Source: an uncultured Clostridia bacterium (GTDB lineage Bacteria; Bacillota; Clostridia; Oscillospirales; Ruminococcaceae). Taken from it: DNA of 64,000 bases. Of this stretch, positions 2 to 62,070 are shown one piece after another. The notes under the pieces are model-generated. The model searched no databases, was not told the origin of the DNA, and saw only the letters and a program-made list of their open reading frames with translations. The position numbers were made by a program, and so were the translations under genes. The stretch covers positions 6,925 through 70,924 of the forward strand of contig CANQXX010000005.1 of NCBI GenBank assembly GCA_947627905.1. The letters run 5' to 3'. Position 1 is the first letter of the stretch; each line of letters starts with the position of its first letter.

Positions 2-3000
2 AAAACCGACAAAACATATTTTAATTCTTCGCTTAACGTACAATCTACGGGTACAAATCCTAAAAATGACGGACTGTATGAGCTTGTAAAAAGCGACGTG
101 ACTAATATAAACGGCACATATATTTTCACAAACATAAAGTATGATAAAGAAAACGGAACAGAATTTATCTATCATGTAAAAAATCCTGATGAGGACACTT
201 ATGATTTAACATCAATGGGGGATAAGGCACCGAGCACAAGACCTAATTATGGCCATTATTATCTTTATTATCCGATACAGAATGTATACGGTAATGAAAT
301 ACAGCGTTTTACTGTTGGCGGAACAGGTGTAGATCTTGATACAGCAGTAAACGGTCAGGGATATGTCAAGGACACTATAACCGCTATAGATGTAGGGTAC
401 AATTATGTCTCCACGGGTTATGACATAAAGCTGCAGAAAGAATGGAAAACGGACGGCGCCGGCGATCCGGATGTCGTGTACTATGATCTGTCATATTCTA
501 CCGCGAAAAATTCCAACGGACAGCATTATAAAACATACAGTATTTCTGCGGCTGTCGGCTGGCTTAACGCTCAGAATATAAACAACCCTCCGGCTGAGAT
601 AGACGGAGAAGCAGTAACCGATTATTATGTAGCTGCGGAATATTATTTCAAGGGCGGCTACCTGTTCAAGCATGTGTTTGAATATGAAAACGGCAAATAC
701 GGCGAACTTTCCGGCAAAACATATTATTATAATGATAAGCCCGGCGTGATCGCGGATATCCGTGATCTTGGTGACATAAACCACGACGAAATTGTAGACG
801 CAGAGGATCTCAGCGCAATAGGTGACGCTCAATGGGCGGAGTATGTCTTTGGCACAACGAAACTGGGCAGCGGCGACGGTGTAAAGCCTTACCATGCTGC
901 CGTTGATAAAAACTTTGTTGAGGGCAAAACCGATGTTACGATAAAGGTAGTAAATTCCTCTGAGGAAAAGCCGGCAAGTATTGAAGTATACAAATATTAT
1001 GACAATCTTTATAAGGAAGGAACAGAGGATATAATAGATGATTCCAACGCTCTCCGCGGCGCTACTTTCCGACTTTACAAGAATACGGAAGAAGAGGTAA
1101 AAGCCGGTCTTGCTCCCGACGCAACAGCCGATGCTAAAAAGAAACTTGAGGAAGTTGAAACGGAAACTACCCGTATAAACGGACGGTATATTTTTACGGG
1201 TCTTGATCCGAAAGAAACATACACTCTCCGTGAGCTGTTCTCTCCTGTAGGTTATCGTATAACCAACGAATACACGGAGATAACTTCGGGTATGTTTGAA
1301 AAAAACAACAATAAGGTAACGGTGTATGTTCCGAATACTCGTGTTGAGGAAGGATTTTACATTCGTAAAAGGTTAAGCGGAAGAATCTGGGAGCCAAGTG
1401 ACACATTTTCTTTCACTATGACAATGAATGAAGGCGAGAGCGGTTACCAACAGGGTACAGGCAACACTGATGTCAATGATATCTTTGAAAATAGTACTGA
1501 CAATCTTAATAATGCGGTAAACACGTTCAGAACAGATTTTAACAGCACATATAAAACAGTTACTATAAACAACGATACGCCTTTCTATACATATGATGAT
1601 GAAACGGGCAATCATATCAGCGCCGACACAAAGGCTGCTTCGCTGCTTGTAAGTGACACCGCGAGCAAAGGAAGTGATGTTGCTGCAACTCTGAACGGCT
1701 TGCCATTTCCTGCTGCCGGTGAATATACATTCACCATAAAGGAAGAAAATTGCACTGATAAAAATATTACGGGATCTGCCGCTGAATATCAGGTAACATT
1801 TTCGGTTACCCGTAAATATAATTCCGATGTTGAGGAGGGTACTACTCCTGCTATAACCGAGAAAAATACACACCTTGCAGCCGAGGTTTCAAGAATACTG
1901 GTGAAATATTCTCCTGGAGGAGCATTTGAGGATTATGCGTCAACAATGCCTATGTTCACAAACCGGTATACGGCTTCTGCTGAACAGAGCGCAAGCTATG
2001 TGATATCTAAAAATCTCGAAGGCCGTGAATGGCTTGAAGATGATGCGTTTACATTTAAGATAAGCACTACCGATGATACTACAATTGCTGCTTTAACAAA
2101 TGGTAATTTTATTGTACAGTCAAAACGTGGCAGTGAAACTTTGGAGACTATTCTCGGAAAAGATAAAGACGACCCCGGAGAAGCAAAAACGGAATATACG
2201 GGTACAATAAGTGCAGCAGACGGCAAAATAACCATTGACGAGCTGAACTATGAGAATGTTTCTTTCCCTGTAGTTTACGTTAATGGCGATGGTGTAGAAT
2301 GGACGGGTGAGGAAGATCCTTCTGCTAAACAAATACAAGACGGTGGTTGGAAACGCGTTACAAAGCCGGTAACTTATGTTCTTGATATTGAGGAGATAAT
2401 TCCTGCGGAGACAAATGGAATAAAGTATTCAAGCGAAAAATATCAGTTGAAAATAACCCTTAAAAATGCTTTGAATGATGAAGGCGAGATAGACGGTGAA
2501 ATTGACGATATAGAGCTTGAGCTTTACTATATTCCGGAAACAGGTAAAGCATCGCGCTTGATAGGGCGGTGTACTATTATTAATGGTAAACAGGAGCACA
2601 ATAATAAGGCTCATGCTATACTTTTCACAAATATATATGAAGCTGAACTTTATTGGAGCCCCTCTATCAATAAATATATATCGGGCAGAGAATGGGACGA
2701 ATTTGATGAATTTGCATTTTCAATTGCATGTACAAGTGCCAATAAAGCCGATGTAAATGTGGTGCAAGGTGCACGGACAGTTACTATCAAAAATAGTTCC
2801 ACCGGTGGAAGTGACTACAGGACAGGTAAATTTGGTTGGGCTGAATTTACCAAGCCCGGTAAATATACCTTTGATATCACAGAAACAAATAATATTGAAG
2901 AACGCGGATTTGTTAAAAAAGTCATAACGACTATCTATGTTGAGATAAAGGATGATAATAAAGGCAAGCTGACGTTCATTGAATATCCTGACGGATTTGA

Positions 3001-6000
3001 TAACCCTGATACAAAGAAGGAGGTAGATATAGAAGAGTCTTCCGAAGGTCAAAGGTATTTATCAACATCATACAATATTACAAACCAATATAAAGACGAC
3101 CCTGATACTACATATTCCTTTGACATCAGCAAGAAACTCGACGGCAGAAACTGGGCGTCGTCGGATATCTTTACCTTTGAACTTACTCCCAATGATGAAG
3201 CAACAAAGAATGCTGTTGATAGCGAGTATATCAAGCTGCCGGCTGATTGGACAAAAAGCGGTGATAAATATACAGTTACTGTAAATTCGGCAGACCCAAA
3301 AAATGTCAGCATTGCTTTCCCGAAGTTTGACGACAGCAGCAACAATGATCCTAAAAATTATACATTTACCCTTTCGGAACAGTCCGGATCCGGAAATATG
3401 GATTATTCCAAAGAGAAATATACGCTGACCTTTACCGTAAAACGTAACAGACACCAAGAGTCTGTAGATGACGGAACAAAAGAAACTTATCTTACCGGTA
3501 AGATTGATGTTGATCTGTCCGTAACTAAATCAGGCGCGGAAGAGGTCTATAATTCAACAGATACTTCTGGAACGTTTTCTGCTACGTTCACCAACTCTGC
3601 TTATGCAACAGATGAATTTAAAGTAAGCAAGAGCTTTTTCGGCACATGGCCGACCAGCAAATCATTTGAAGCAGTAATTAAGCGTACCGATACAAACGGC
3701 GGAAAGGTGACCATTGACGGAACAGAAATTGCTGCCAGCAAATCAACAACAATAGAATTTACAGAGGACGATAAAGTTAAAACTCCCGAAATAAAATTCT
3801 ATGAGGAAGGTACTTATACATTTGAAGTTAAAGAAACAGCACCGGCACCATTGGCAAAGGAGCCTATTGATTATGACAGCAGCACTTATACTGTTACTGC
3901 AAAAGTAACGGATAATGGATCAGGAAGTCTGAATGTAGAATACGAGATCGACGGAAAAACCGGCAATGAAGTAAAAATTGAAAACGCAGCTGTAGGAAGT
4001 CTTTCCGTTACAAAGGCAGTGGAATGCAATAAACCCGGCGTTGATGTTCCGACGGATAAGGAGTTTAAGGATAAGGAATTTACTATTAATGTTGCGCTGA
4101 CACTGCCTGAAGGTCTGCCTGAAAGGTATCTGAATAGTTCTGCATACTCGGTTACCAGTATTGACGGTATAGAAGGATCTTCTATCGGAGACGTTAATAA
4201 AAGCAGCCGTACATTTACAGTAACCCTCACGCTGAAAGCCGGTCAGACAGCAACGATAAATCATCTTCCCACAGGTACAGCGTATAGCATTACGGAAGAA
4301 GGACCTGTATTCAGCTTTACACCAAAAGATCAGACGATCACGGGAGATGTAGTTGTCAATGAAACTACCAGTGAATACAAGGAAACTGTTACCAATATCT
4401 ACAATGTCAATGATATAACAATTTCCAAGAAAGTCCAAAAAGAGGACAAATCTGACATTTCCGGCGAAGATGATACCGAGTTCAGTTTCAATATCACATT
4501 GAAAAACGGCGAAGCTCCTCTTGACGATTATATCTATACCAGTAATGAGGATGTTACATGGAATGAACCGCATGACGGAACAGGTACATTTACAATTACA
4601 CCGAAAAAATCTATAACGCTGAAAAATATCCCATACGGCGCAACATATTCAATAGAGGAGACCGGTGATTATGCCGGATATGTAAAGGAAACAGTACCGG
4701 TTTCAGGAACGGTCGGCGGAAGTGCTCTGGATGTAAAGTTTGTAAACACCAAGCTTGCCACACATGATCTCACTATTGAAAAGACTGTTGACAGCACAAT
4801 GGCAGCGGATCTTGAGCAGAATTTCAAATTTGATGTAACTCTTACTGCGCCGGACGGAACGATATTTGATGATGTTGATGAATACACAGCTGTTTCCGGT
4901 CTGACAAGAAGCGCTGACGGCAAAACTATAAGCGGAATTATTACCCTTGGTAATAAAGGAACCGCAACAATAGCGGGACTTCCCAATGGAACGGTATATA
5001 CAGTCGAGGAACAGGATACTTATGACGAGAAACTTGTATCTTCCGTTTCAAGCGACTATGACGAAGCCGAAGGAAAATTGGACGATAACAAGACCGTTAA
5101 ATTTGTCAATACACGCCAAAAAGGCAGTCTGACTATTTCCAAGACGGTCGAATCAGCCGATAGCGGCTTTGACAAGGACAGCTACAGTTTTGAGTTTAAG
5201 GTAAAAGTTGAGGGTATTGACACTGACCGCGAATATCCTATAGAAAACTATTCTACCAATAAAGTTACATTTGACAAAGAAAAAGAAACAACATTATACC
5301 TCAAAGACAAAGACATTGTAACTATAGGGGAATTGCCGGACGGCGCGGCATATACAGTGACCGAAGAAGGCAACGCAAATTACTTCACGCTTGTTAACGG
5401 AGAACTTATTGACAGTGAGTCCCCAAAAGCGGCAGCGGGAAATATAGTTCCGGGAACACCGTCAGAGGTTGATTTTGTCAATATTTACGACAAACAGCCC
5501 ACAAAGGAACTTGACCCGGATATTTCCAGCGTTCAGGTCGGAGATGAAATTAACTATTCTATAAAATGGTATAACAACAGCAAAGATACAGCAAACGTTA
5601 CTATCACCGACACTCTGCCGGCTCAGCTTGATTATGATAAAGCAGAAGTGATCGGAGCCGGATCTTCAGGTTATGATATCCAAGTTAAAGGCAACGAAAT
5701 AACATTGACGCTGAAAGGCTGTGCCGGTCTTTCCAGCGGTACGGTAAAGGTATTTGCAAAGGTCAACGAAAAAGCTGCGAAATCCGGCTTTACAAATACT
5801 GCAGCGGTAGAAGTCGGCAAAAATGAATATACGGTAAGCTCCAAAACTATTGGCGCGGCTGAAATTGGCAATATCAAGATATCCAAGAAGGCCGCAGGCT
5901 CTCTTGCCGACAAGAACCAATATTTCACCTTTAAGATAACGGAAGCAGTAGATAATAGCGGCACTCCGCTGACCGGCACATACAATTATACGGGCGGCAA

Positions 6001-9000
6001 AGAGGGAACGGGAACGTTTGATTTCTCCACTACAGACTCTCTTACGTTTGAGCTTAAAGACGGCGATAGTATTATCATTAATGCTTTGCCGGCAGGAGCA
6101 AAGATAACCGTTGAAGAAAAAAAAGAAGAAGGGACTGCGGCTGCGGATTATGTTACTTCCGTAAAAGAGATCCCCGATAAAGTAACCGCAGTTTCCGACA
6201 ATATTGCCAAACTGACGGTTGTCAAGAGTACAGATACCGAAGCTGCTTTCACCAACAGGAAAGACGGACTAAATACAAAGAGCATTGATAAGACTAAGCT
6301 GACAGGCGATCATGTAAGTGTAGGCGATACTATACCCTATGTTATCACATGGAACAACAACAGTGAATATAAAGCAGACGTTACTATCACCGATACACTG
6401 GCTGATGGTCTTGAAATTGTCAGCCATGAAGAACCGGAAGGTGAAACAGATAAAGAAGTGACATATGAATATATTCCCGAAACAAACACGGCTAAATGGA
6501 CATTGAAAGGCAGGGAAGCAGGCGAAAAGGGAGAAGTGCGTCTTACCGTTAAGGTAAACGAAGCCGCGGTAAAATGGGACGGAAAAAATACTGCTTCAAT
6601 AACCGTAAATTCAAATGAAGATAAAGTTTCGACGGAAGATGAAGATATTGTATATGTCAAAAAAGGCAATATAAGTCTGACAAAGAGCGTGACCGGTACG
6701 GAAAAAGCTTCCGAACTTGGCAGGTATTTTGCATTTACTATCGATGCAAATACAGCCTACAATGCAGCTACAGGCAGCGTACCTCTTAGCGGAAGCTATG
6801 ACTTTACGGGAACAATGGGTAAAAAACTCGGCAGCGACGATACCATTACCGAAGTTACGGACGGAAAAATAGAGTTTAAATCGGGAAAGGCGGAGATATT
6901 CCTTAAAGCCGGACAGAGCATAGAGATCATTGGACTGCCCGCAAACGGTGACGATAAACATAAAGACTTTACGATCACAGAAGCGGAAGTACCGGGATAT
7001 ACTGTATCTATAACTCCGGAGCCTGACGTCACAGCAGACAGCAGGACATACAGCGGAAAAGTGCCTGTTGGCAATACTGCGAATATAGTTTATGAAAACC
7101 ATAAGCTGGAAGAACATGATCTTACCATACTTAAGGTAGTGGCCGGAAAGAACGGAAACAAATTGCGCTCATGGAACTTTAAGGTTGAACTGACCGCCCC
7201 GGAGGGAACTGTATTTGCTAAGACATACACTGATACATACAAAGTTACCAAAGGTAATTTTGAATGGACCGGTCTGTCCGATGACGAAACAAAGCTGACA
7301 GGCAGCTTCAGTCTTGTGAGCGGCGAGAGTTTGATCATAAATGGACTGCCGGAAGGTACGGTATATGATGTTATTGAGAATGGTCTTCCCAAAGACTATG
7401 AGGTAAGCGCTGAAATATCAGGAAAGAAAGCTACACTTGCGGAATCTGACGGTCTTGCTGTAAATACGGCAAAGCTTTCTGATAGCAAAACCCTTGATCT
7501 TACTCTTGATGATGACAAGAGTGTCATCATTACCAATGAAAGTCCTATTCCGGAAGCAGGCGAAGGCAGATACAGCCTTACAAAAAAGGTAACAGGCGTA
7601 GGCTTAAAGCCTGATGATATGGACACCGAGTGGCATTTTGATCTTCAATTTGGAAATATGGACGCAAAAGATTATGACTATACAAAACTTGATATTTCAG
7701 CCAGTGATCCTAAGATAATTGAAGAGGGCATAATATCTTTAGGCAGCGACGGAAAGATCACATCTATCAAAGTAAAAGATTCGTCAGGAACGTTCACTGT
7801 GCAGCCGGATAATAAGATTACCCTGAAAAACTCTCAGATCATAACCATTTACCGGCTGAAAGCAGGAGAAACCGTAACGGTTTCAGAAGTTGGAGACCTG
7901 AACGGTTATGAGACAACATTCACTCAGTATACTGCTCCTACCAGAGCGGCGTCTGCAGAAGAAGCGGCAAAGGATTATACTGTGACTGTTCCGAATAAGA
8001 GTGACGTTGTGGTAACCTGCACAAATAAACGTCTGCCCGGAAATCTTAATATAACGTCGGAGGTAGAAAACGAAGGCGGCGATACTATTGATGATAAAAC
8101 AGAATTTGAATTTGACATTACTCTTACAACTGAGAAACCGTTAGATTCTGACGTATGCGCACAATTCAAGGATATTAAATGTGAAGAAGTAGACGGCAAA
8201 TATGTATATACCTGCACGGTGACCGGACGGGAATTTAATTTCAGCGGTCTGCCGGACGGCACAGAATATACCGTTGAAGAACATCTTGCTCCGGGCTATA
8301 AGTTCAAGAACGGAATAAACAGATATGAGGGTACTATAACAGCCGGCGAAACATCTTCAGCACCTTTCGTCAACATAAAGATCAGCGAAGCAACTCTTAT
8401 AGTGACTAAGTTGCTCGATAGCAGCATCACAACTGACAGCGACAAGGCCTTTACTATCCGGATATATCTTACAGCGCCCAAGGATACTATCCTTGCCGAT
8501 AAATATTCCTATACGGTAAGTCCTTCAGATGAATACTCAGACGTCCGTACTCTCACAAAGGTAAGCGGCGATAAATGGGAAGGCAATTTCAATCTCATAC
8601 CCGGTCAGACGGCGACGATAAGCGGTCTGCCGCAAGGCACATTCTTTGAGATAAGCGAACCTTCAGCAGACGGATTTGATCCGGATATCTCGCGGAATAA
8701 AGCTGTCCTTGATAAAAAAGAAAATGAGGTAACTATCACAAACAGGAGAAAGACAGCCGATCTGACGATATCCAAGAAGATATCTTCCGACAGCGAGCTG
8801 ACGGCAACGGATAGGGCGATCCCGTTTGAATTTGAAATAGGACTTGGCGCCGGAACTACAGGACTGGATATTAAAGATATCGACGGCACATATGGATATG
8901 ACGGAACATATTCAGGAACGGTAACGTTCAGCGACGGAAAGGTGACCGGATCTACAGGCGAGCATTCACCGTTCGGAAAAGACGGCAAGCTCACTCTGAA

Positions 9001-12000
9001 ACACGATGAGAGCATAGAAATTAAGGGTCTGCCGGTTGGAACATATTATACCGTTAATGAAGTATCGGCATACAGCGGATATACTCCGGAGACCGGTCCA
9101 TTCAATGGCTATATTTATGAGCTGCCGAAAAATAATCCTGCCGAATCGTCTGAAAATAATCTTGCCGCATTTGTAAATAACAAGAATGTCGGCACACTGG
9201 AAATATCCAAGAAGGTAGTTCATTCCGACGGAGGAGAGCTTAGCGGCGGCAGCACGGAAGACAATTTTGTATTTGATGTTTATATGTCTATCACTCTGCC
9301 GGACGACACTAAGCTGCCGCTCTCAGGAACGTTCGGAGACTATACGTTTGAAAACGGACACGCTGCAATAACTCTTAAAAATGGCGGAACAGCCGTTATC
9401 AGCGGAGTGCCTTTCGGAACTGATTATTTGATAGAAGAAGATCTGAGCGGCAAGGGAGGCATATACACTTCAACAGTTACGAGCGGCAATGATAGCGGTC
9501 AGATCAACAATGATACAACACCGGTAAAGGTTGAATATGTCAACAAAAAGAGCGTAGCAAGCCTGAAAGTCACAAAGACTGTAGAAAATGCCGATACAAA
9601 CATCAGTACGATAGACAGCAACAAGGACTTCAGCTTTACTCTTACGCTGACAAACAGCAATGTATCAGTTGCAGGAACGTATAAGACCGACAAGGGAGAA
9701 ATAATTATTGATAACGGCGGCGTCGGAACATTTACGCTGAAAGACGGCGAAAGCCTGACAATTTACGGTATCCCGACAGGAACATCGTACACCGTTCAGG
9801 AAGCTGCTGACGCTGATTATAACGTAAAGATCAACGGTATAAGCGACGAGGACGGCAGCAGTGAGGGAATGATATCTTCCGACAGCACTGTAGCATTTAC
9901 AAACGTCAAGAAATCGGCAGTGCTTACGGTTACCAAGGAGATAACCTCTGAAAATGAAATTACCGATGACGACAAGCGTATCCCGTTCAAGTTCACCATA
10001 GAACTTGAAGTGCCTGTAAATGACGGAACGGAATATAGAGGACTTGACGGAACGGTAAGAGCAGAGATCAAAAGAGTAAACGGAGGTCTTTCCGAGTCTG
10101 AAGATCTTGTATTTGACGGAGGTTCATGCAGCACCGAAATAACTCTTCACCATGGAGACAGTGTAAAACTTATTGATATTCCCATTGGAACAAAATACAC
10201 AGTCACTGAGACGACTAAAGATCCGGGATATACATATACACCGGACGAAGCAGACGGAAAGATAAGCGGCACGGTCGAAAAGGAAGAGAATCTGAAATTC
10301 ATAAACAAGAAAGTATCAGGTTCTCTGACCATATCCAAGACGGTGAATAATTCCGACGGATCGCCGCTCAGCAGCAGTACGGCGGAAGAAAAATTCGACT
10401 TTGGCGTTAAATTAACCGATGACGGAATAACGTTCAACACGGCAACGGTAAGCATAAACGGAGAAACGGCAACTCCGATCAAAGCAGGTACAGACGGAAA
10501 GTTCCATATACCGCTTGGAAACGAAGACCGCGCAGTATTTACGGATATTCCTGTCGGAACTCATTATGAGATAACCGAAGATCTGAGCGGCAAGGACGGA
10601 TATGCTTCTCCCGAAGTCAAAGACAACAATGCTAATTCAAGCATCAATGGCGGCAATGTAAGCGGAGATATCGACGGAACATCATCGCCGGTACAGGTAG
10701 AATACATCAATACAAAGAATGTAGGAAGCCTGACGATTACAAATACCGTTCAGGTATCCGACGGTTCTGCACTTAATGATACCGATAAGGAGCCGTTTGA
10801 ATTTAGTGTCTTACTTGGTTCAAAGGCAAGAGCCGCTGCCGGATATGAAAATGAATATCAGGCATATATAGGCGAAAAGGGAAGTTCAGCAGCGTCTGAT
10901 GTCAATGCTTCGGTATCGTTTAACGCTGACGGAACGTTAAAGAGCGTTACTTATTACAACGGAACTGAGGAAAGTTTCGTCAAACTCAGCCACAATATGG
11001 AAATAACCATTTACGGCATACCTCTGGATATGGGCTATCAGGTAACTGAGACGCAAAGACCCGGTTATACCATGTCTGCGGTCGGCGATAACGGAACTAT
11101 TTCCGCTGATAGTATAGCAAACTATATAAATATCAGATATGTAGGCAGCCTGACGGTAACAAAGACAATAGTAAATTCCGACGGCTCGGAAGTAACCGAG
11201 GACCAGAAGAATGAAAAGTTCGATTTTGAAGTAAGGTTCTACACAACTGACGCAAGCGGAATCGAGACGGAATATGACAAACAGACATTTGAACTTGGTC
11301 ACGACGGAACAATTACATTTGACAGTATCCCGGCGGGAATGAGTTACACGGTTTCCGAGACTGACAGCAAGGGTTACTCAAGTTCCGGAGATGTAAGCGG
11401 AATTATCAAAAAGGATACCGAAGATACCGTAGCATTTATAAATACTTTTGAAGTTCCTGAACTCGGAAGTCTGACGGTAACAAAGACAGTAGTAAATTCC
11501 GACGGATCGGAAGTAACCGATGACCAGAAGAATGAAAAGTTCGATTTTGAAGTAAGGTTCTACACAACTGACGCAAGCGGAATCGAGACGGAATATGACA
11601 AACAGACATTTGAACTTGGTCACGACGGAACAATTACATTTGACAGTATCCCGGCGGGAATGAGTTACACGGTTTCCGAGACTGACAGCAAGGGTTACTC
11701 AAGTTCCGGAGATGTAAGCGGAATTATCAAAAAGGATACCGAAGATACCGCAGCATTTACAAATACTTTTGAAGTTCCCGAACCCGGCAGCCTGACAGTA
11801 ACAAAGACAATATTAAATTCCGACGGCTCGGAAGTAACCGATGACCAGAAGAATGAAAAGTTCGGCTTTGAAGTAAGGTTCTACACAACTGACGCAAGCG
11901 GAGCCGAGACGGAATATGACAAACAGACCTTTGAACTCAGTCACGGCGGAACAATTACATTTGACAGTATCCCGGCGGGAATGAGTTACACGGTTACCGA

Positions 12001-13255
12001 GATTGACAGCAAGGGTTATGCAAGTTCCGGAGATGTAAGCGGAAGAATAGATAACGGTGCGGCAGTGATGGCAGAATTTATAAACACCAATGAGGTAACT
12101 TCGCTGCCCGATACAGGAAGCCTTACGCTGACAAAACATGTCAATGTCCTCAGCGGAACGCCTGATCCGGAAGATACGTTTACGTTTTCAATAACTCTGG
12201 TATATCCTGACACAACTTCCGAAACGCGTGAGGCCGTTCTTCACGGCGGAGAAAGCACTATCATTGAGGATATACCTACAGGAACGGCATATACGATATC
12301 CGAGATATCAATGCCCGGCGGATATGCTGCTCAGGATATGATAACAGGAAACGTTAATGGAGACATAACAGAAATATTTGTCAATAACTTCGGCAGCAGC
12401 ACCGATCCCGATGATCCTCCGGATATTCCTACACCTCCTCCCGGACCTCCGGAACATATTGATCCTCCGGAACCGCCAAAGACAGATGAACTTATTATTC
12501 ACAAAGATGTAGTTGACGCAGGCGGCAATGACATCAACAGTGAGAATAAGGACAGCTTCGAGTTTGTTGTGGAGATATTCAGAATGGACGGAGATTACGC
12601 ATTAGGTTCATTTGAATACACCGGAACGATGGGTTCTTCCGGAAGCGTATCCAGCGGAGGAAAGATCACACTTAAAGCCGGAGAGACTGTAACGATTGAA
12701 GGTATACCTGTCGGATACGGCTACAGAGTAAGGGAAGTCCTTCCGGAAAGCGGAGAATACAAAGTAAACGGAAGTATAAATGTATCCGGAACTATAGTGG
12801 ATCACCGCGCAAATGAAGTTGACTTTGAAAACCTGTATACTCCTAAGGAAAAGCCTGAAGATCCAGACAAGTCCGCAGCAGAAGATCCGGACGATACCGA
12901 CAATATTGATCCCGATGATGCTGTTGGACCTGACGATGATGACGCTGCCAATGACACGGCAGAAACTGAAACGTCTTATGAATCAGCAGATTCCGGCGCG
13001 TCGGCAAGCTCGGAAGAAGATGAACTTCCGGACGATGAGCACAAGGATATTCCGGAATATCCGGACGACGCAGAGGAAGCAAAAGAACCGGAAGAACTCG
13101 AAGTTCCGGACAAAACCGATGCAGACGGAGATATACCCTATGAGCCTGAAGCTCAGGAAAATCCTAAGACCGGAAATACTTCTCCCGCATCTGCAATATT
13201 TGCAATGCTTGCTTCGGCGGCAGCTATGATGTTCACAAGGAAGAAAAAGAAATAA
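2..13255 (+). CDS. giant cell-wall-anchored surface adhesin, 5'-truncated by the window edge (about 4,417 aa visible)
   Basis: Frame 2 has no stop from nt 2 to the TAA at 13253-13255. The GTG at 98 used by the ORF track is therefore internal. The translation shows FctA/Spy0128-like pilin-isopeptide-style modules (e.g. 'DAFTFKISTT', 'GKYTFDITETNN', 'KNYTFTLSEQSG'). It also shows two DUF11-like repeats ('VGDEINYSIKWYNNSKDTANVTITDTLP', 'VGDTIPYVITWNNNSEYKADVTITDTLA'). About 20 Cna-B/SpaA-like units each open with G-x-L-x-[IV]-x-K-x-V. The protein ends with a Pro-rich linker, a D/E-rich tail, NPKTG, a hydrophobic helix and RKKKK. Confidence 0.9.
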   Translation, partial: KTDKTYFNSSLNVQSTGTNPKNDGLYELVKSDVTNINGTYIFTNIKYDKENGTEFIYHVKNPDEDTYDLTSMGDKAPSTRPNYGHYYLYYPIQNVYGNEIQRFTVGGTGVDLDTAVNGQGYVKDTITAIDVGYNYVSTGYDIKLQKEWKTDGAGDPDVVYYDLSYSTAKNSNGQHYKTYSISAAVGWLNAQNINNPPAEIDGEAVTDYYVAAEYYFKGGYLFKHVFEYENGKYGELSGKTYYYNDKPGVIADIRDLGDINHDEIVDAEDLSAIGDAQWAEYVFGTTKLGSGDGVKPYHAAVDKNFVEGKTDVTIKVVNSSEEKPASIEVYKYYDNLYKEGTEDIIDDSNALRGATFRLYKNTEEEVKAGLAPDATADAKKKLEEVETETTRINGRYIFTGLDPKETYTLRELFSPVGYRITNEYTEITSGMFEKNNNKVTVYVPNTRVEEGFYIRKRLSGRIWEPSDTFSFTMTMNEGESGYQQGTGNTDVNDIFENSTDNLNNAVNTFRTDFNSTYKTVTINNDTPFYTYDDETGNHISADTKAASLLVSDTASKGSDVAATLNGLPFPAAGEYTFTIKEENCTDKNITGSAAEYQVTFSVTRKYNSDVEEGTTPAITEKNTHLAAEVSRILVKYSPGGAFEDYASTMPMFTNRYTASAEQSASYVISKNLEGREWLEDDAFTFKISTTDDTTIAALTNGNFIVQSKRGSETLETILGKDKDDPGEAKTEYTGTISAADGKITIDELNYENVSFPVVYVNGDGVEWTGEEDPSAKQIQDGGWKRVTKPVTYVLDIEEIIPAETNGIKYSSEKYQLKITLKNALNDEGEIDGEIDDIELELYYIPETGKASRLIGRCTIINGKQEHNNKAHAILFTNIYEAELYWSPSINKYISGREWDEFDEFAFSIACTSANKADVNVVQGARTVTIKNSSTGGSDYRTGKFGWAEFTKPGKYTFDITETNNIEERGFVKKVITTIYVEIKDDNKGKLTFIEYPDGFDNPDTKKEVDIEESSEGQRYLSTSYNITNQYKDDPDTTYSFDISKKLDGRNWASSDIFTFELTPNDEATKNAVDSEYIKLPADWTKSGDKYTVTVNSADPKNVSIAFPKFDDSSNNDPKNYTFTLSEQSGSGNMDYSKEKYTLTFTVKRNRHQESVDDGTKETYLTGKIDVDLSVTKSGAEEVYNSTDTSGTFSATFTNSAYATDEFKVSKSFFGTWPTSKSFEAVIKRTDTNGGKVTIDGTEIAASKSTTIEFTEDDKVKTPEIKFYEEGTYTFEVKETAPAPLAKEPIDYDSSTYTVTAKVTDNGSGSLNVEYEIDGKTGNEVKIENAAVGSLSVTKAVECNKPGVDVPTDKEFKDKEFTINVALTLPEGLPERYLNSSAYSVTSIDGIEGSSIGDVNKSSRTFTVTLTLKAGQTATINHLPTGTAYSITEEGPVFSFTPKDQTITGDVVVNETTSEYKETVTNIYNVNDITISKKVQKEDKSDISGEDDTEFSFNITLKNGEAPLDDYIYTSNEDVTWNEPHDGTGTFTITPKKSITLKNIPYGATYSIEETGDYAGYVKETVPVSGTVGGSALDVKFVNTKLATHDLTIEKTVDSTMAADLEQNFKFDVTLTAPDGTIFDDVDEYTAVSGLTRSADGKTISGIITLGNKGTATIAGLPNGTVYTVEEQDTYDEKLVSSVSSDYDEAEGKLDDNKTVKFVNTRQKGSLTISKTVESADSGFDKDSYSFEFKVKVEGIDTDREYPIENYSTNKVTFDKEKETTLYLKDKDIVTIGELPDGAAYTVTEEGNANYFTLVNGELIDSESPKAAAGNIVPGTPSEVDFVNIYDKQPTKELDPDISSVQVGDEINYSIKWYNNSKDTANVTITDTLPAQLDYDKAEVIGAGSSGYDIQVKGNEITLTLKGCAGLSSGTVKVFAKVNEKAAKSGFTNTAAVEVGKNEYTVSSKTIGAAEIGNIKISKKAAGSLADKNQYFTFKITEAVDNSGTPLTGTYNYTGGKEGTGTFDFSTTDSLTFELKDGDSIIINALPAGAKITVEEKKEEGTAAADYVTSVKEIPDKVTAVSDNIAKLTVVKSTDTEAAFTNRKDGLNTKSIDKTKLTGDHVSVGDTIPYVITWNNNSEYKADVTITDTLADGLEIVSHEEPEGETDKEVTYEYIPETNTAKWTLKGREAGEKGEVRLTVKVNEAAVKWDGKNTASITVNSNEDKVSTEDEDIVYVKKGNISLTKSVTGTEKASELGRYFAFTIDANTAYNAATGSVPLSGSYDFTGTMGKKLGSDDTITEVTDGKIEFKSGKAEIFLKAGQSIEIIGLPANGDDKHKDFTITEAEVPGYTVSITPEPDVTADSRTYSGKVPVGNTANIVYENHKLEEHDLTILKVVAGKNGNKLRSWNFKVELTAPEGTVFAKTYTDTYKVTKGNFEWTGLSDDETKLTGSFSLVSGESLIINGLPEGTVYDVIENGLPKDYEVSAEISGKKATLAESDGLAVNTAKLSDSKTLDLTLDDDKSVIITNESPIPEAGEGRYSLTKKVTGVGLKPDDMDTEWHFDLQFGNMDAKDYDYTKLDISASDPKIIEEGIISLGSDGKITSIKVKDSSGTFTVQPDNKITLKNSQIITIYRLKAGETVTVSEVGDLNGYETTFTQYTAPTRAASAEEAAKDYTVTVPNKSDVVVTCTNKRLPGNLNITSEVENEGGDTIDDKTEFEFDITLTTEKPLDSDVCAQFKDIKCEEVDGKYVYTCTVTGREFNFSGLPDGTEYTVEEHLAPGYKFKNGINRYEGTITAGETSSAPFVNIKISEATLIVTKLLDSSITTDSDKAFTIRIYLTAPKDTILADKYSYTVSPSDEYSDVRTLTKVSGDKWEGNFNLIPGQTATISGLPQGTFFEISEPSADGFDPDISRNKAVLDKKENEVTITNRRKTADLTISKKISSDSELTATDRAIPFEFEIGLGAGTTGLDIKDIDGTYGYDGTYSGTVTFSDGKVTGSTGEHSPFGKDGKLTLKHDESIEIKGLPVGTYYTVNEVSAYSGYTPETGPFNGYIYELPKNNPAESSENNLAAFVNNKNVGTLEISKKVVHSDGGELSGGSTEDNFVFDVYMSITLPDDTKLPLSGTFGDYTFENGHAAITLKNGGTAVISGVPFGTDYLIEEDLSGKGGIYTSTVTSGNDSGQINNDTTPVKVEYVNKKSVASLKVTKTVENADTNISTIDSNKDFSFTLTLTNSNVSVAGTYKTDKGEIIIDNGGVGTFTLKDGESLTIYGIPTGTSYTVQEAADADYNVKINGISDEDGSSEGMISSDSTVAFTNVKKSAVLTVTKEITSENEITDDDKRIPFKFTIELEVPVNDGTEYRGLDGTVRAEIKRVNGGLSESEDLVFDGGSCSTEITLHHGDSVKLIDIPIGTKYTVTETTKDPGYTYTPDEADGKISGTVEKEENLKFINKKVSGSLTISKTVNNSDGSPLSSSTAEEKFDFGVKLTDDGITFNTATVSINGETATPIKAGTDGKFHIPLGNEDRAVFTDIPVGTHYEITEDLSGKDGYASPEVKDNNANSSINGGNVSGDIDGTSSPVQVEYINTKNVGSLTITNTVQVSDGSALNDTDKEPFEFSVLLGSKARAAAGYENEYQAYIGEKGSSAASDVNASVSFNADGTLKSVTYYNGTEESFVKLSHNMEITIYGIPLDMGYQVTETQRPGYTMSAVGDNGTISADSIANYINIRYVGSLTVTKTIVNSDGSEVTEDQKNEKFDFEVRFYTTDASGIETEYDKQTFELGHDGTITFDSIPAGMSYTVSETDSKGYSSSGDVSGIIKKDTEDTVAFINTFEVPELGSLTVTKTVVNSDGSEVTDDQKNEKFDFEVRFYTTDASGIETEYDKQTFELGHDGTITFDSIPAGMSYTVSETDSKGYSSSGDVSGIIKKDTEDTAAFTNTFEVPEPGSLTVTKTILNSDGSEVTDDQKNEKFGFEVRFYTTDASGAETEYDKQTFELSHGGTITFDSIPAGMSYTVTEIDSKGYASSGDVSGRIDNGAAVMAEFINTNEVTSLPDTGSLTLTKHVNVLSGTPDPEDTFTFSITLVYPDTTSETREAVLHGGESTIIEDIPTGTAYTISEISMPGGYAAQDMITGNVNGDITEIFVNNFGSSTDPDDPPDIPTPPPGPPEHIDPPEPPKTDELIIHKDVVDAGGNDINSENKDSFEFVVEIFRMDGDYALGSFEYTGTMGSSGSVSSGGKITLKAGETVTIEGIPVGYGYRVREVLPESGEYKVNGSINVSGTIVDHRANEVDFENLYTPKEKPEDPDKSAAEDPDDTDNIDPDDAVGPDDDDAANDTAETETSYESADSGASASSEEDELPDDEHKDIPEYPDDAEEAKEPEELEVPDKTDADGDIPYEPEAQENPKTGNTSPASAIFAMLASAAAMMFTRKKKK
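11144..12106 (+). repeat. 3 x 321-nt (107-aa) in-frame tandem repeat inside the adhesin gene
   Basis: Units start at 11144, 11465 and 11786 ('GSLTVTKT[IV][VIL]NSDGSEVT.DQKNEKF.FEVRFYTTDASG'). Units 1 and 2 differ at 5 of 107 aa by my count. Unit 3 diverges towards its end. Confidence 0.9.
13160..13252 (+). other. C-terminal sorting signal: NPKTG, hydrophobic segment, RKKKK
   Basis: Translation reads 'NPKTGNTSPASAIFAMLASAAAMMFTRKKKK*'. NPKTG is encoded at 13160-13174. Confidence 0.8.
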
Positions 13256-14597: not shown

Positions 14598-14605
14598 TAA
14601 GAGTG

Positions 14606-14634
14606 TTGAGAGTTAAGAGTTGAGATATTATAAT
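14606..14634 (+). promoter_or_regulatory. promoter-like module built from GTTGAGA heptads (copy L1)
   Basis: -35 TTGAGA (14606-14611), exactly 17-nt spacer, -10 TATAAT (14629-14634). It starts 9 nt after the M20 stop codon. The same module recurs at 62071-62099, and a degenerate inverted copy lies near 42174-42204. Confidence 0.5.
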
Positions 14635-14639
14635 TTAGC

Positions 14640-14980
14640 GTACTAAACGAAAGAAAATTATAGCTGGTCGAGCTGAGCCCAGCTCGCGGGGTCGAGGGGC
14701 AGAGCCCCTTGTCGCCGTCCGCAGACGGCGAAATTCCCCTTAAAAAGAGCTCCGCAAGGGTGTGAATAAAACGACGCAAGCGTCGTCTAAGCCGCTTTAG
14801 TGGCTTCAAGAGGGGGCTGCCCTGCGATAGAGGGCGCCCCCTTGGCACTAACGATTACTATAGTTTAAGCCTTGCCAAACAGCCCAGTGAGCTGTTTGGC
14901 AACATAGAACACTAAACAACTAAACAAAAGAAAATAATAGCTGTTCGTGATTAGCTCACGATCAGCTATTATTTTTTTTT
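14640..14980 (+). ncRNA. candidate structured ncRNA or structured repeat element, copy 1 (family not recognised)
   Basis: It lies between the promoter-like module and a strong terminator, with no ORF carrying a ribosome-binding site. Hairpins seen:
- 14669-14686
- 14693-14711
- 14713-14730
- 14771-14786
- 14789-14806
- 14811-14842
- 14872-14902 (12-bp stem)
The 247-nt core (14658-14904) is repeated at 41918-42144. Confidence 0.4.
14933..14980 (+). terminator. strong intrinsic terminator
   Basis: An 18-bp stem (14933-14950 with 14956-14973, one mismatch), a 5-nt loop, and a run of about 10 T's. Confidence 0.8.
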
Positions 14981-27482: not shown

Positions 27483-30400
27483 ATGAAAACAACATTCAAA
27501 CGCTTTGTATCATTTACATTGAGCTTTGCTTTTTTATTTCTGATGTTAGGAGATATGTCGTTTCAGCTGAATATATCCGCTCGTAATTACAACTCTCATG
27601 ATATGTATATCTATATTAAATCGTGGCAGCCTGATGGTTCATATTTACAGGACGAGTATTATATAGATGCCAGCGACAACGAATTCATAATTAAGACGGG
27701 CGGCGGAAAACCGGCAGCTGTAAACAATGCAGTGTATGATGAAGCAAGACAAATGCTTACTATTACTCCTTTTGGTGAAAAGGAAACCTCTAAGCTGTCC
27801 GGCTTTGCGGTATCCGCAGGTAATGACGCGGTAACGCTCGGCGTTGACAAAAGCAATAATTTTACGATACAATACGATCCGAATATACATCTTGTAAAGG
27901 TACATATTTTCTACAGTGAAAAGCAGAGAGAAGTTGCCGGTGAAAACTTTGCGTCAGGCGCAACATTTGGTAAGGATTTTAAAGAAAATAATCCGGAAAC
28001 AGACGTTATAACACCGGATTATTATAATAATTATCTTAAAGGCTATCTTACAAGCCAAGGTGTTGATACTACTAAATTAGCAATAGAAGATGATATGTAT
28101 GATACTTCTATGGGCTTGCATACAAACAAGACCGCTAAAGCGGCTGATAATGCCGAAATTGCTAACTATGTCGGAGAATATAACACCGCTGACGGCGCAC
28201 GTATATTTGATATAAACCTTGAAGCATGGTATGCCGATCAGGCAAAGGCTGATATAGGTCTTGTTCTTGATGCCTCCGGAAGTATGGCTTGGGTCGCTGA
28301 TACTACAGCAATAAGCGAAGAAACAATATTACCCATTAATTTTAACGATTTGACAAGCGGAGACGAAGAAAAATACATGAGTATCCAAGTAAAAACGGGT
28401 ACTGATGAAAAAGGTAAATATTACGAAATATATGAAACCAGTGAAAAACACGCTGACGGACATTACTGTGCAAAAGTATATGAAAATGAATACATCACTC
28501 CCGAGCAGCTGGCAAGCATACTTGACCCGGCTCTTACGGATAATTCCAGCTTGAGTTACAGTGATTATAAATACTATATCTATGGCACAAGATCTACTGA
28601 AAAGGAGTTTATTCCTCTTGGATACTGGGACGGTAATGAAGGTAAAGTTGCAAAAGAAGAAGCAGGAAAAGAAGAGGAAGTAACGCCGGTAAGTCCTGTT
28701 CCGCAAAGAAAGAATCTTATAGGATATTGGGATTTTGAAGAAGATCATATTGCAAAGAGAAACGGCGGTCAACGTCATCCCTTATATCCAGTAAACGTGG
28801 TTGATGGTACTCTTTCTGATGTAGGTGCTACTGATTCAAATATAACAGAATATCTTAGTGACGGTTATACCGGCGGTACAGCACTTAGATTGGCAGATTG
28901 GATAAAGAAGTTAAATAGTAAAGGACCAATCAGTTTAAATGTTAAGCCGAAAAGTAATAATTTTACTATTTCATTTGCTGTAAAAAATGCAAAAAATGAC
29001 AGTTCTTTTTATAAGCAAGGATTAATTTACATTGGGGATAAAACATACCAAAATAGTAATATTTGCAGCGATGGGAGAGGTTTACAACCCAGTCAAGGGT
29101 ATATAATATATCAATATCAAAATGAAAGCAGTCATAGTGATTTAAGATTAGGAAACTCAAACAACAAAGCTGTTTATAGAAACAGTGAGGGACTAAAAAG
29201 TGATTGGCAATTTTACACTTTTGTATTTAGTGATGAGGGAGATATTAAAGTTTATATTGACGGATATTTAAAAGGAACTAAAACGAATAGCGTAAAAACT
29301 TTTACTAATTCTGAACTTGAAAGCGACAATTTTAATATTATTTTAGGAGCAAATATTGACACAAGTAAAAAATATGATCAAATTTTGCTTGACGATATCT
29401 TCTTATATGATATAGCATTGGGAGAAAAAGAGGTTAGCGAATTATACAATAATATTAAAACTATAAACGAAAAAGGTATTGACGGAAATGAAACTCCTAA
29501 ACCCAGTGCAACCGACGACAAGCACCGCGCTTATTCTCCCGACGGAGAAACTGTGATCGGTGTTTACAGTAAGGATCTTGCCTCAGGTGTGGGTGAAAAC
29601 ACTAAAGGCTGGTACTATGTAAACTCAACATCTAACTGGAAAGAAAATTATAATTCAGATGCTGTAAAGACCGGTAAAGACCTGAAACATCTTCAGGCAG
29701 GCGATGTTATCGAAAACCGTATCAACTATTCTGATCTTCCCAAAACTGTGCAAGATTTTGTAAGTGAAACTGACGTAAACGCGGGAAACGGCGGTGCTAT
29801 CTGTACTGGCTCCAATACATTTACCGGAAAAGGCAGAAAGTATGACGGCTCAAGCGTAGAAGAAAAAGGCAAATATTATAATCCGGAATATGAAGTACTT
29901 GAACATGACAGTTCAATAGAACTTGGAGACAAACAATCCAAGGCTGCCATAACCTTACCGTCAAGCAAAACTACTCGTCAGGGTGTGGAAAGCAGCGACG
30001 GAATAGAATCGCCTGTGGTATTTTTCATAGATTCAGCCGGTTATCTCAGATGTTTTTATAATACCGGTACAGCAGAAGCTGACGGAAAAAGTAGGGCTTC
30101 AGATCTTGACCATACCTCAGGGGTATCCTATGTTTATGCTAAAAACGATCAGCAGAGAACAAAGGTAGAGGAGCTGCAGTATTCACTGGGTAGGTTTGCT
30201 TCACAGCTTATCACCGAATCTCGCGAAAGCCGTGTTTCTGCTGTAAGATTCAGTCTTGAAATCAATGAAAAAAAAGACAGGATAACCGAAAAAGAACTTG
30301 ACCACTTGGTTCTTCTTGACTGGACAAATGATACTCAGGAAATAAGCCGGCTTATGAGCCTTACAAGAGGAGACGGTAGCTCATTAGGCTTTGATCCATC

Positions 30401-33400
30401 AGGTGATGTTGAACAGTATAACTATGGTCTGACTGGCGGTACTAATCTGGCGGTAGGTCTGCAGGCGTATAAAGATAATCTTGACAAAATAAGGCTCAAA
30501 GACGGTGAAGACAACGACGCCAAGAAATACATAGTTGTATTTACCGACGGTAAGGATACAAGCCTTGAATCGGGCGGCGACGACGGCAAAGCAGCAAAAG
30601 ATATTGCCCAAGAGCTTAAAGATAAAAACGACTATGAAATATTTGTCGTTCTGCTGAAGACCGGTGCATTTACCGACGATGCTGCTGCCGAAGACAGTAA
30701 GGTGCCGGGTTTTGTCAGCGCTATAGCCGGAAAGAAATTAAAAGAAGGCGAAGATGCGCCTACATATGAAAAACTTGCGCTTGATAAAGATATTTCAACA
30801 TTGACTGACGAAGAACTGGCAGAAGAAGCAAAAGATAAATATATTTTTGTTGCAACGAACGGTGAAGACCTTACAAGAATGTTTACACAGGGTGTTCTTA
30901 TGAACATCTCCGAAAAGCTGACGGATTATACCGTTCAGGACTATATCGATCCCAGATTCGATATGATCGTAAAGAACCCCAATACTTTAACAGACACCAC
31001 GGATTACAGGCTCGTTCTGGGCGCAGGCGGAAAAGTAACAATACAGAGCTATGACGATACGAAAAAAGTATGGACAGAAGTCACCGACACAACCAAGGTT
31101 TTCAAAACCGGAACTACAGCTCCCGGCGATAGTACTCTTATTGGCAATATCAAACTTTATGACGGTACAGACGGCGTTGGTCTGCATTATGACAAAAAGG
31201 AGAATATGTATTTCCTGCGCTGGGATAAAGAGGATATACCGGCGTGTGCCGTTGGCGCGACTAAATTGACCGTATGGAGCAGGGAAATGCGCCTTATCGC
31301 TAAGGAAGATTTCATCGGCGGAAACGCTGTTCTTACAAACGGCAATAAGGAAAAAATGAACTGGGTATATTCAAACTCGTCAAAAGAAGAGGGCGATTAT
31401 GCAAACAGTTCAGGCACTAAGGACGCCGTAAGACAATTAAGCAGTGACAATGAAACATACCTTAATGCTGATGTTTCCAAGGGCTTCCCAAGAACTACGG
31501 TAAACGTGCGCCTTGAAGATCTCAGCTTCAAAGAAAAGGACATCGTTGTTTATCTCGGTGAAGAGCTTGACCCTGTTGATGTTGCCGAGCAGGCAGGTAT
31601 GGAGATAGTGAAAACTCTTTACTGGGAATATCTGGGAAGATACTATTACAACAATCCCGAAAAGGGTTCATTTGATAATTATAACGAAGCTCTTAAAAAA
31701 GGCATTGAGGATATAATTGAAAAAGCCAATGACAATAGTTTTATAAAAATTGACAATAATGCAAGCAAAGCAGACATTGAAAAAGCTGTTGATGACTTTT
31801 TCAACGATCCGAGCAATGAGCATAAATATGTAAAACTTCCTTACTATTATCTGCCTGTTGCCGCAGGAGAACCCGAGCCGGAAAACAATATTGCCGCCGA
31901 TATGCCGCAGTCAGAGGATAAGATCGGAGATATCTATTATGCGATATCGCTTATCGATCGTGATGTAGATGCCGGAGAAAGCGGCACAGCAGACAGCTCA
32001 CCTTTTGAAACAAGATCCACCAAGACGAGACAGTATAAACTGATAGTAAGATTTGTTGCCAATGAAGTCAAAGTGGAAGATGAGATAGCAAATTCAGACA
32101 GAATAGAAGCCAACAAAAATCTTATTACGGAAACAGACGGCACAACAAAAGCGGTTTATCCTTGGGATAGAGCGTATAAGCCTGAACAGGGTAAGGCACA
32201 GGAATCGGTAAGTTACGGCAGAGTTTACAATATCGGTCTTGTAAAGGGTGAAGTTGTTCTCGGTCTTAAGATCTATAAAGAAGATTATGATCACATTCAT
32301 GATCATCTGGGGAAACAGTCTTTAGACTATACCGGAACGCTTATGCGTACTGCTCCCGGAAGTACAGATCCGACAGAAGCAGCTACATTTACTGTTGAAT
32401 TTGATACTGAGCGTTCTTGGGACGACATGAACGATTATGCATCTAAAGACAAAGATCACACATATCTCTTTGATAAAGATGAAAATGGCGAATATGTTGT
32501 AATTTATGCTAAAGCCGAGATCAACAAAGACATTTTCAAAAATACAGAAACCGGTGAAGAATATCTTCCTATCGGCAAGTATACGATCGAAAATAATAAG
32601 GGTGAATCTACACTTTCAGGTGTAACATTTGGCACGGTTGAGTTTGTTGATGTTGAAGGTCATGATGATCTATTTGAAACTTTACGTGTAAATAATAAGA
32701 CCACAGATGAAATGCTTGAAGCAATACCAAGTGGAATTTCTCCTGCAAACCTTGAAGAACTCAAAACGGGCTCTAAAATTGCGGACGCTCTTGCCGCAGG
32801 TATCAGCGAAGATAATACGCAGGCTTATCTTGGTTATCCTGTTGACGAACCCACTGAAGAGAAAAAAATAGACGGTACGATCTACACCGACAACCGTCTT
32901 GCACTGGCAATTATTTCCCTTGATATGCCTATGGGCAAACTTGAAATTTCCAAGGAAGTAAAAAGTTCCAATGATAGCGAGATCGACAAGAGCCGGGAGT
33001 TTACGTTTACCGTTAAGCTGTATTACGGTGATGATCTTACGTCTGGTACGCCTTATGAAATGACCGATATTGCAAGTCATGTTAAGATAAACGACGAAGC
33101 AGTGACCGGCGATCTGGCAGAAAGATTTACAGGCGAAAAAGGTTCTTATACACTCATACTTAAAGACGGCGAAAAAGCTGTAATTGACGAACTCCCCGAC
33201 GGCTTGAAGTATGAGATCACCGAAAGTGCGCCGGTAGGTTATAAAACTACCGTGAACGAGACTGAAAGCGTATCCAAGAATGGAGTTATTGAGGCTGATG
33301 CTTCCGGCAACAAAACGGAACCGGTTGCCTTTACCAACATAAAGCAGGTCGGCGATCTGAAAATTTCCAAAACGGTCGAAAGCTTGTCCGGCGATGCTGA

Positions 33401-40939: not shown

Positions 40940-41512
40940 TCAGAAAGATATCACTCCAAGATGTTCAAGCAGGATCTTCGTTCCGATAAGTATCAGGATA
41001 ACTCCTCCTGCGATCTCGGCTTTATTTTTGTATTTTGCGCCGAAGCGGTTGCCAATAATAACTCCGCCGAGGGAAAGCGCAAAGGTCGTAACGCCGATAA
41101 TAAGTATCGCAAAGAAAATGCTTACTTCAAGGAATGCAAAGGTTATTCCTACTGCAAGGGCGTCAATGCTTGTTGCTATCGCGAGCATGAAAAGCTCGCC
41201 GATTTTCAGGGAATATTCCGTTTCCTCGTCATCGTCCTTTTCGTGCAGGGCGTCGAAAATCATTTTCCCGCCGATAAAAAGCAGCAGAACAAAGGCTATC
41301 CAGTGATCGAAGGCTTCGATATACTTTGAAAATCCGGAGCCGAGCAGGTAGCCGATAAGGGGCATAAGCGCCTGAAATCCGCCGAAAAACAGGGCGATAA
41401 TATAAGCGTGTCCGAGGTTTAATTTCCGCATATTAAGACCTTTGCAGACGGAGACAGAAAACGCGTCCGCAGAAAGTCCTATGCCTATCATAAAAAGTTC
41501 AAAAAATCCCAT
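40940..41512 (-). CDS. mntP: manganese efflux pump MntP family protein
   Basis: 'IGIGLSADAFSVSVCKG' and a second half 'IATSIDALAVGITFA' show the DUF204 duplication. The ATG at 41512 has GGAG upstream. The ORF-track extension to 41632 is non-homologous. Confidence 0.85.
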   Translation of the reverse strand: MGFFELFMIGIGLSADAFSVSVCKGLNMRKLNLGHAYIIALFFGGFQALMPLIGYLLGSGFSKYIEAFDHWIAFVLLLFIGGKMIFDALHEKDDDEETEYSLKIGELFMLAIATSIDALAVGITFAFLEVSIFFAILIIGVTTFALSLGGVIIGNRFGAKYKNKAEIAGGVILILIGTKILLEHLGVISF

Positions 41513-41679
41513 AGCGTGAACGTCTCCTAATGTGTTAAATGTCCGATGCGAATTACAGCTTGTCAATTTAAATTTATGAAAGATATCCTGTTTATATGCA
41601 GGAATTTTATCGGGATAAGTGTCATTGCTCATATCCTGCGGGATATGGGATTTGTCCGGTAAACCGGATTTCTTGATTT

Positions 41680-62062: not shown

Positions 62063-62070
62063 GTATAGTG

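Follow-up and report, generated by a model that had tools for sequence, protein, structure and literature searches.

The region downstream of an M20 amidohydrolase gene in the window (the whole 64-kb stretch of DNA analyzed here) carries a promoter-like site, a dense array of hairpins and a terminator-like stem, and raises the question whether it is a self-contained RNA gene, as the initial annotation proposed, or one instance of something repeated. We consider it probable that positions 14603–14980 are a copy, devoid of its right end, of an interspersed repeat that is mosaic, non-autonomous and of the MITE or BOX kind. The family is uncatalogued and occurs in Ruminococcus-like Oscillospiraceae, and its structured core is probably selected on one strand.

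The copy at 14603–14980 and its counterparts in the window

The upstream ORF, identified as an M20 amidohydrolase by Pfam domains PF01546/PF07687, ends with a stop codon at 14597, and 9 nt past it a sigma-70-like site starts, consisting of TTGAGA (14606–14611), a 17-nt spacer and TATAAT (14629–14634), with a promoter score of 11/12. This arrangement had been reported earlier, together with its composition of GTTGAGA/GTTAAGA heptads, and both were reproduced. The heptad array, GTGTTGAGAGTTAAGAGTTGAGAT, occupies 14603–14626 on the plus strand, as do all other features of this copy, and forms its left end; the site at 14606–14634 is made of the heptad period plus ATTATAATTT and points into the element, the –35/17/–10 geometry being a consequence of the 7-nt period of the heptads. 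The stretch from the heptad end to the core (14635–14659) is an A-rich leader, TTAGCGTACTAAACGAAAGAAAATT, with homologues in loci L025, L219, L215 and L093.

The core extends from 14660 to 14902, and its helices P1–P6 (14660–14845) are recognized by the covariance model R1 with 118.9 bits (E = 1.9e-31). P1 is located at 14669–14686, P2 at 14693–14711, P3 at 14713–14730, followed by GAAA, P4 at 14737–14741 paired with 14756–14760, P5 at 14789–14806 and P6 at 14811–14842, while a lineage-specific extra hairpin at 14771–14786 is common to this copy and L215. A linker and P7 occupy 14846–14902, with P7 itself at 14872–14902, having 12 bp and a loop of the family type CCNGTGR. All seven hairpins of the initial annotation, that is, P1–P3, the extra hairpin and P5–P7, are present in the predicted fold. 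The minimum free energy of the segment 14636–14985 is –152.9 kcal/mol, compared to –98.7 ± 5.0 in shuffled sequences (z = –10.8), but its minus strand folds equally well in silico (z = –9.8), and hence fold energy by itself is uninformative about the strand. The G·T positions G14694·T14710, noticed before in the P2 stem, and G14794·T14801 are confirmed in the sequence. Two further pairings were rejected: a long-range helix between the leader and the P6–P7 linker is predicted in the window copy, but its register is lost in L055 and L064, as judged by eye, and an alternative closing helix P0 (GGGG before P2 with CCCC after GAAA), replacing P4, has no covariation support.

The remaining part, 14903–14980, comprises a tail and a terminator-like hairpin with a run of nine T, and lies outside the shared repeat. 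The stem and T-run at 14933–14980, described earlier as a terminator, were found again as inverted repeat I3 and in the predicted fold; a simple terminator scan misses the stem due to one internal mismatch. The left arm of this hairpin (14920–14949) forms a 30-nt direct repeat, matching at 26 of 30 positions, with the leader and the 5′ arm of P1 (14643–14672), possibly left behind by the insertion event or by another element that was truncated.

The recurrence of the core in the same orientation had also been recognized, and indeed the second copy occupies 41910–42156 on the same strand, with P1–P7 at 41920–42142 scoring 138.9 bits; these two known copies are the only hits of the model in the window. 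Compared to the first copy (14658–14904), it has the five substitutions counted previously and lacks 20 nt that correspond precisely to the hairpin at 14771–14786, with two more substitutions next to this indel. Upstream of the second core is a B-like hairpin module (41767–41905, plus strand) that starts with a 22-nt inverted end, AAATGATAATTTGCGGGGAAGC, and also precedes the core in L064, L018 and L025, the latter with a compensatory variant (GCGGGG..CCCCGC to GTGGGG..CCCCAC). This module resembles the B module of PUUB17 copies, which consists of a hairpin, CACCCCC and a GC hairpin. Downstream, a right terminal module (42143–42212, minus strand) is formed by the inverted 22-mer at 42162–42183 and four inward-facing heptads at 42186–42212, and a module of the same type follows the core in L064. 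The first copy has the left end only and lacks this right module: the two copies part beyond P7, where the first one runs into the terminator-like hairpin.

The second copy has no heptad promoter on its own strand, as its heptads face in from the opposite strand, and the promoter-like site there is poor (9/12, with a 16-nt spacer, minus strand). It is antisense to both neighboring genes, gapdh and mntP, and therefore not every copy can act as a sense RNA. The mntP gene (Mn efflux, 40940–41760, minus strand) has a good promoter at 41708–41680; mntP is often preceded by the yybP-ykoY riboswitch, and none was found at this gene by the Rfam scan of the window.

A solo heptad end is present at 62063–62120 (plus strand), with TTGAGA-17-TATAAT and one short hairpin, GCGGGGGCTTCCCC, and without a core behind it. 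Farther downstream, at 62145–62173, an independent and perfect TTGACA-17-TATAAT precedes an ORF with an Hpt domain. Elsewhere, the window contains two giant repeat-rich ORFs, at 98–13255 (4385 aa) and 27483–38357 (3624 aa, with 13 DUF7601 and five DUF5979 stretches), both having tandem units of 321 or 360 nt and PPGP-type 18-nt repeats; their common tail is 81% identical (12446–12745 and 37572–37871), and they are probably cell-surface proteins.

Host range and mosaic build of the family

A 23-mer from P2 and P3, searched for in one genome per species, yields 86 exact matches in 84 stretches, exclusively from MAGs of Ruminococcus, Oscillospiraceae or Clostridia obtained from the rumen and from the gut of rabbit, mouse and human. 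A single MAG, PUUB17_bin.063, accounts for at least 32 of these matches. Both strands are represented, and a contig end is a very frequent location; an identical M20 protein is encoded on only one other contig, which stops 37 nt past the stop codon, inside the heptads. The covariance model R1, trained on 23 diverse copies, produces 131 hits across 584 kb of element-bearing loci, while the phage, plasmid and viral collections contain no match to the core. In agreement with the earlier failure to assign the hairpin array to a common RNA class, the whole window has no hits at the Rfam gathering thresholds, and the E-value mode returns sub-threshold noise only; the gathering scan of 18 element-bearing loci with Rfam 15 identifies only tRNA and tmRNA, neither overlapping the element. 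A literature search of incomplete coverage, on the P3 sequence or on MITEs of Ruminococcus, retrieved no specific description.

The presence of the element varies between related loci. L074 is 92% identical to the window segment 57379–61369 and has a hairpin module and a core downstream of the gene, where the window has an ordinary terminator. The element is found in the same place and on the same strand after the M20 gene in L219 (94% amino acid identity of the M20 protein) and L215 (86%), and is absent downstream of M20 in L211–L214 (87%) and L216–L218 (80–81%). The insertion boundaries at M20 are unreadable, since synteny is not kept in the relatives. A low-GC homologue (GC 0.38, 54 bits) is located in L093 between heptads and degenerate inverted heptads.

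The order of the core is constant: a variable P1, GGGG, P2, P3 with the loop CGCA, GAAAY, P4, which sometimes encloses a further hairpin, UGAGAAA or UGAAUU, P5, the long hairpin P6, a linker of about 25 nt, P7 and CAAC. P7 has 12–13 bp and a CCGGUGG-type loop, is found in 53 of the 57 full-length copies with enough flanking sequence, and its stem varies by compensatory changes; no conserved terminator or T-run is present 3′ of P7 in the other copies of the family. Around this order the build is mosaic, which was recognized because a plain MAFFT alignment of 480-nt windows gave an unusable 1281 columns. The 5′ module, P1–P3, is also joined to other 3′ modules, P2-like hairpins are repeated two or three times in tandem, with three in L082:1–115, and PUUB57-type copies have two P1 units. 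Elements are also arranged head to tail or tail to tail, with tail-to-tail pairs about 20 nt apart in L010, L037 and L080. In L032:6870–7150, the 5′ module and the B module form alternating arrays.

The whole element exceeds the core and is bounded by inverted repeats that differ among subfamilies. In the subfamily of the window and L064 this is the 22-nt repeat AAATGATAATTTGCGGGGAAGC plus heptads, in the PUUB17 subfamily the 18-nt repeat CAATGTCATCAACTTAAG (L035 and L045), in the RGIG6795 subfamily GACCCAAACGCGAAGCGA, and in the PUUB57 subfamily CTGTCACATCTAAAAAT. Such ends were found at the second window copy and in L064, L045, L035, L078, L041 and L085, and in other genomes the same core lies within at least four unrelated pairs of inverted ends. 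Direct repeats of about 10 nt border two copies of the PUUB17 subfamily, L035 (ACCGTRCGAG) and L045; neither of the window copies, and none examined from the remaining subfamilies, displays a target-site duplication. In L045:5550–5900, an element with CAATG-type ends appears inside a small GC hairpin module, GCCCCCTGCCAGGGGGC, that is intact in L040, and this comparison suggests nested insertion into hairpins. No matching pair of ends encloses an ORF, as an autonomous parent would have, in the element-bearing loci scanned, and clustering of the 1241 ORFs of these loci reveals no recurrent neighbor gene that could encode a partner protein; the sole recurrent ORF “family” consists of spurious ORFs crossing the repeat itself.

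The seven-helix core may alternatively be a functional RNA module captured as cargo by several unrelated transposon-end systems, with the fold rather than the ends under selection. We regard this as possible, though unlikely, compared to the reading of the region as a copy of a mosaic interspersed repeat.

Constraint on the core and the strand that folds

Base pairing was counted in the 70 best hits of the model, constituting 68 distinct rows. A standard pair is observed in 97.5% of cells, compared to 82.6% in shuffled alignments and 43–53% with slid partners, the covariation score is 0.367, compared to 0.110 and 0.04–0.10, respectively, and 29 of the 48 pairs are changed on both sides. None of 500 shuffles reaches any of the observed pair or covariation values, a control that overstates significance, as the alignment is fitted to the covariance model and a single genome often contributes many of the rows. 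Covariation is observed at every pair of P1, the inner P4 hairpin and P5, and P6 and P7 display clear series of variants; inter-copy recombination could spread whole stem variants. P2 and P3 are nearly invariant in most rows because the 23-mer used as the search word lies in them; copies that this word missed, and that were recovered through an adjacent copy or the model alone, have compensated P2/P3 variants, TCCAGGGAC/GTCCCTGG, GCCGCC/GGCGGC and GCCGAC/GTCGGC, and L093 has GCTTTC/GAAAGC. Between the M20-adjacent copies of the window and L215, compensated replacements are seen in P1, P2, P6 and the extra hairpin, in the latter from C-G to U-A. The CGCA loop, GAAA and GGUGA are fixed.

Thus, the stems of the core are kept by compensatory changes, and the core is a real folded element. 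The initial judgment that the substitutions did not amount to convincing covariation, made from two copies, was too cautious now that many are aligned. Its alternative of a REP/BIME/MITE-like DNA repeat stands insofar as the region is a multicopy interspersed repeat, but the high level of pairing, the compensatory changes, the strand-specific G·T excess, the conserved loop and junction bases and the recurrence of the core between unrelated ends make it more than a plain DNA repeat.

In distinct ungapped hairpins, G·T positions outnumber A·C on the strand of the element, 22 vs. 6, and several pairs of the model are half G·U; hence the hint of plus-strand folding, previously drawn from a single wobble in P2, holds for the whole family. 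By crude gene calls, 24 copies in co-directional intergenic spaces are sense and 10 antisense, and 22 copies are in convergent spaces, compared to 12 in divergent ones. The wobble excess and the sense bias fit a transcribed, folded RNA, and equally well fit recognition of single-stranded DNA on the lagging-strand template, since Firmicute genes are mostly co-oriented with replication; the sense bias could originate from this replication-strand bias rather than from transcription. Judging from the sequences, the core is probably selected as a folded single strand, more likely RNA than DNA, because its helices are distinct and ordered, one of them is nested, the junction bases are fixed, and copies are placed in 3′ UTRs ahead of terminators.

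The hairpin array could act solely as single-stranded DNA, with stems serving as sites of an HUH/Y1 enzyme, similar to TnpA of IS200/IS605 or to RAYT, and without any role as RNA. The tandem hairpins P1 and P2 share a common foot, (G)GTC, with three P2-like hairpins in a row in L082, the core itself has no inverted ends, and the one-strand excess of G·T over A·C and the orientation bias of about 70% are as compatible with use of the lagging-strand template in Firmicutes as with transcription. However, L035 and L045, with their inverted ends and direct repeats of about 10 nt, suggest that the whole element is moved by an enzyme of the DDE type, genes resembling tnpA, tnpB or RAYT are not recurrent beside the copies, no shared tetra- or pentanucleotide is apparent at the core edges, and the conserved junction bases and the nested P4 exceed simple REP hairpins. 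We consider a purely single-stranded-DNA role quite unlikely. Derivation from IS200/IS605 was also rejected, as tnpA, tnpB or iscB do not recur, inverted ends are present, and there is no match to the HEARO or IS605-orfB families.

Heptad ends, gene context and the nearest analogues

The heptads bear on the proposal that the region is a free-standing gene of a trans-acting sRNA, with paralogous copies, its own sigma-70 promoter and an intrinsic terminator. The heptad block plus ATTATAATTTAGCG has three sites in the window, before the first copy, at 42186–42212 (minus strand) and at 62063–62089 (plus strand), with five matches observed and 0.02 expected by chance. The same array is present in at least 120 metagenome contigs; among the matches listed, its usual form is heptads, 50–100 nt and inverted heptads, that is, a tiny element flanked by inverted repeats, and these matches are mostly such elements and unrelated heptad runs. 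Many of the contigs with tiny elements (L091–L210) come from gut and digester-type metagenomes, and among the matches listed none of these elements is accompanied by a transposase. In L064, heptads bracket a second hairpin module in the inverted orientation. In L030, from a rabbit-gut MAG, a module of about 270 nt is bounded by forward heptads at 2242 and reverse heptads at 2513, and a tmRNA gene (2624–2973, minus strand) is located at a distance of about 110 nt.

The –35/17/–10 geometry is retained in L015, where heptads, TATAAT, leader and core are arranged as in the window copy, and at the window site 62070–62098. In L219, the closest orthologous copy, a 17-nt insertion breaks the spacing, and L215 has no heptads at all. 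Promoters directed inward from a transposon end are ordinary, and the one in the heptad end may well be active, but it is not conserved together with the core: the heptads at 14603–14626 are a repeat end rather than a dedicated promoter.

Accordingly, an sRNA gene is very unlikely. The near-perfect promoter match followed by a terminator-like hairpin, the same arrangement in L015, the covarying stems with conserved loops, and the wobble pairs specific to the plus strand would all suit it. Against it are the broken or missing promoter in L219 and L215, the second window copy with heptads on the wrong strand, the dozens of copies in both orientations in one genome, the lack of a T-run after P7 in other copies, and the terminator at 14933–14980 that does not belong to the shared repeat. 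On these grounds, the earlier notion of a self-contained unit of promoter, RNA and terminator does not survive.

It is highly improbable that the core is a guide or scaffold RNA (omega-RNA, bridge-RNA or similar) of a trans-acting transposon nuclease or recombinase, with the leader or a loop providing specificity. With its length of about 250 nt, its many copies and its dense structure, the core does resemble such an RNA, and in the window subfamily a variable leader of about 20 nt separates the promoter-like site from the conserved scaffold; but none of the 131 copies has a TnpB, IscB or IS110-like ORF beside it, the HEARO and IS605-orfB Rfam families give no hit, the leader is A-rich and of low complexity, and inverted ends with target duplications are foreign to IS200/IS605 and IS110 elements, which, to our knowledge, have neither. 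Equally remote is a vertically inherited cis-regulatory 3′ UTR element of the M20 gene: the element does directly follow the M20 stop on the same strand in the window, L219 and L215, and the extra hairpin is common to the window copy and L215, but it is absent after M20 in the seven loci L211–L214 and L216–L218, more than 100 other copies adjoin unrelated genes, and the second window copy is antisense, between gapdh and mntP.

Returning to the reading of 14603–14980 as a copy of a mosaic interspersed repeat, its nearest analogue among known systems is the BOX element of Streptococcus, built as boxA-boxB(n)-boxC, with boxB in S. suis flanked by boxA/C and also by boxE/F (PMC3049150). Both are non-coding, multicopy, intergenic and modular, with a variable number of internal modules and different terminal modules around the same internal one; both have extensive predicted secondary structure if transcribed, are often nested or clustered with other repeats, and have an uncertain mobilizing enzyme (PMC3049150). 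The resemblance is of kind only, as the hosts are unrelated, and is presumably not one of sequence; compared to BOX, the present core is longer (about 250 nt, seven helices) and GC-rich, it is maintained in different genera, where its stems have undergone many compensatory changes while loop bases are fixed, and tandem variation affects P2-like hairpins and not a boxB unit.

As with MITEs, the element is small, lacks a conserved ORF, is dispersed and multicopy (86 matches of the 23-mer and 131 model hits), and its presence varies between closely related genomes. Its ends agree with those of MITEs in part: inverted repeats bound several subfamilies, direct repeats of about 10 nt flank two copies, and the copy at 14603–14980 has the left end only. 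However, typical MITEs are AT-rich and keep their ends while the interior drifts, whereas here it is the interior that is conserved, with different ends in different subfamilies; the loci scanned contained no parent IS.

The REP/BIME repeats of Enterobacteria are GC-rich hairpins with a conserved foot, single or arrayed, that are associated with RAYT transposases, reside in 3′ UTRs and between convergent genes, and have known effects on mRNA stability and attenuation. The hairpins described here share the GC-richness, the foot, the single or arrayed occurrence and the placement in 3′ UTRs and convergent spaces, but all helices are on one strand in the fixed order P1–P7, while REP/BIME alternate in orientation, and a RAYT gene is not among the recurrent neighbors. 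Correia and ERIC elements have promoter-like sequences in their ends, as do the repeats considered here, and RNA-processing sites when co-transcribed, but they form a single long hairpin via inverted ends rather than an ordered array of local helices (PMC3049150).

We propose that a transposase supplied in trans would read the variable ends, while the core would not be a transposase substrate and would be selected as a folded single strand, most simply RNA. This RNA could arise by read-through from the upstream gene, here as the part of the M20 3′ UTR that precedes the terminator; alternatively, transcription could start at the inward promoter-like site of the heptad end. Most likely, the core would act in cis, as an RNA module for protection, processing or attenuation of transcripts. 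Insertions could then be tolerated, a view already put forward for REP/BIME, ERIC, Correia and BOX.

If the core is instead captured cargo, it would represent a structured ncRNA that is mobile in Clostridia of the gut and rumen, and might serve either the elements, via control of the transposase or copy number, or the host, as a portable signal for mRNA stabilization or processing. The element breaks assemblies of Ruminococcus-like MAGs and can be mistaken for an sRNA gene, and a model of it would improve annotation and binning of abundant Clostridia of the gut and rumen. It is a small mobile repeat whose interior is under stronger constraint than its ends, and the natural compensatory variants already at hand make it testable whether such repeats persist through the action of their transcribed fold.
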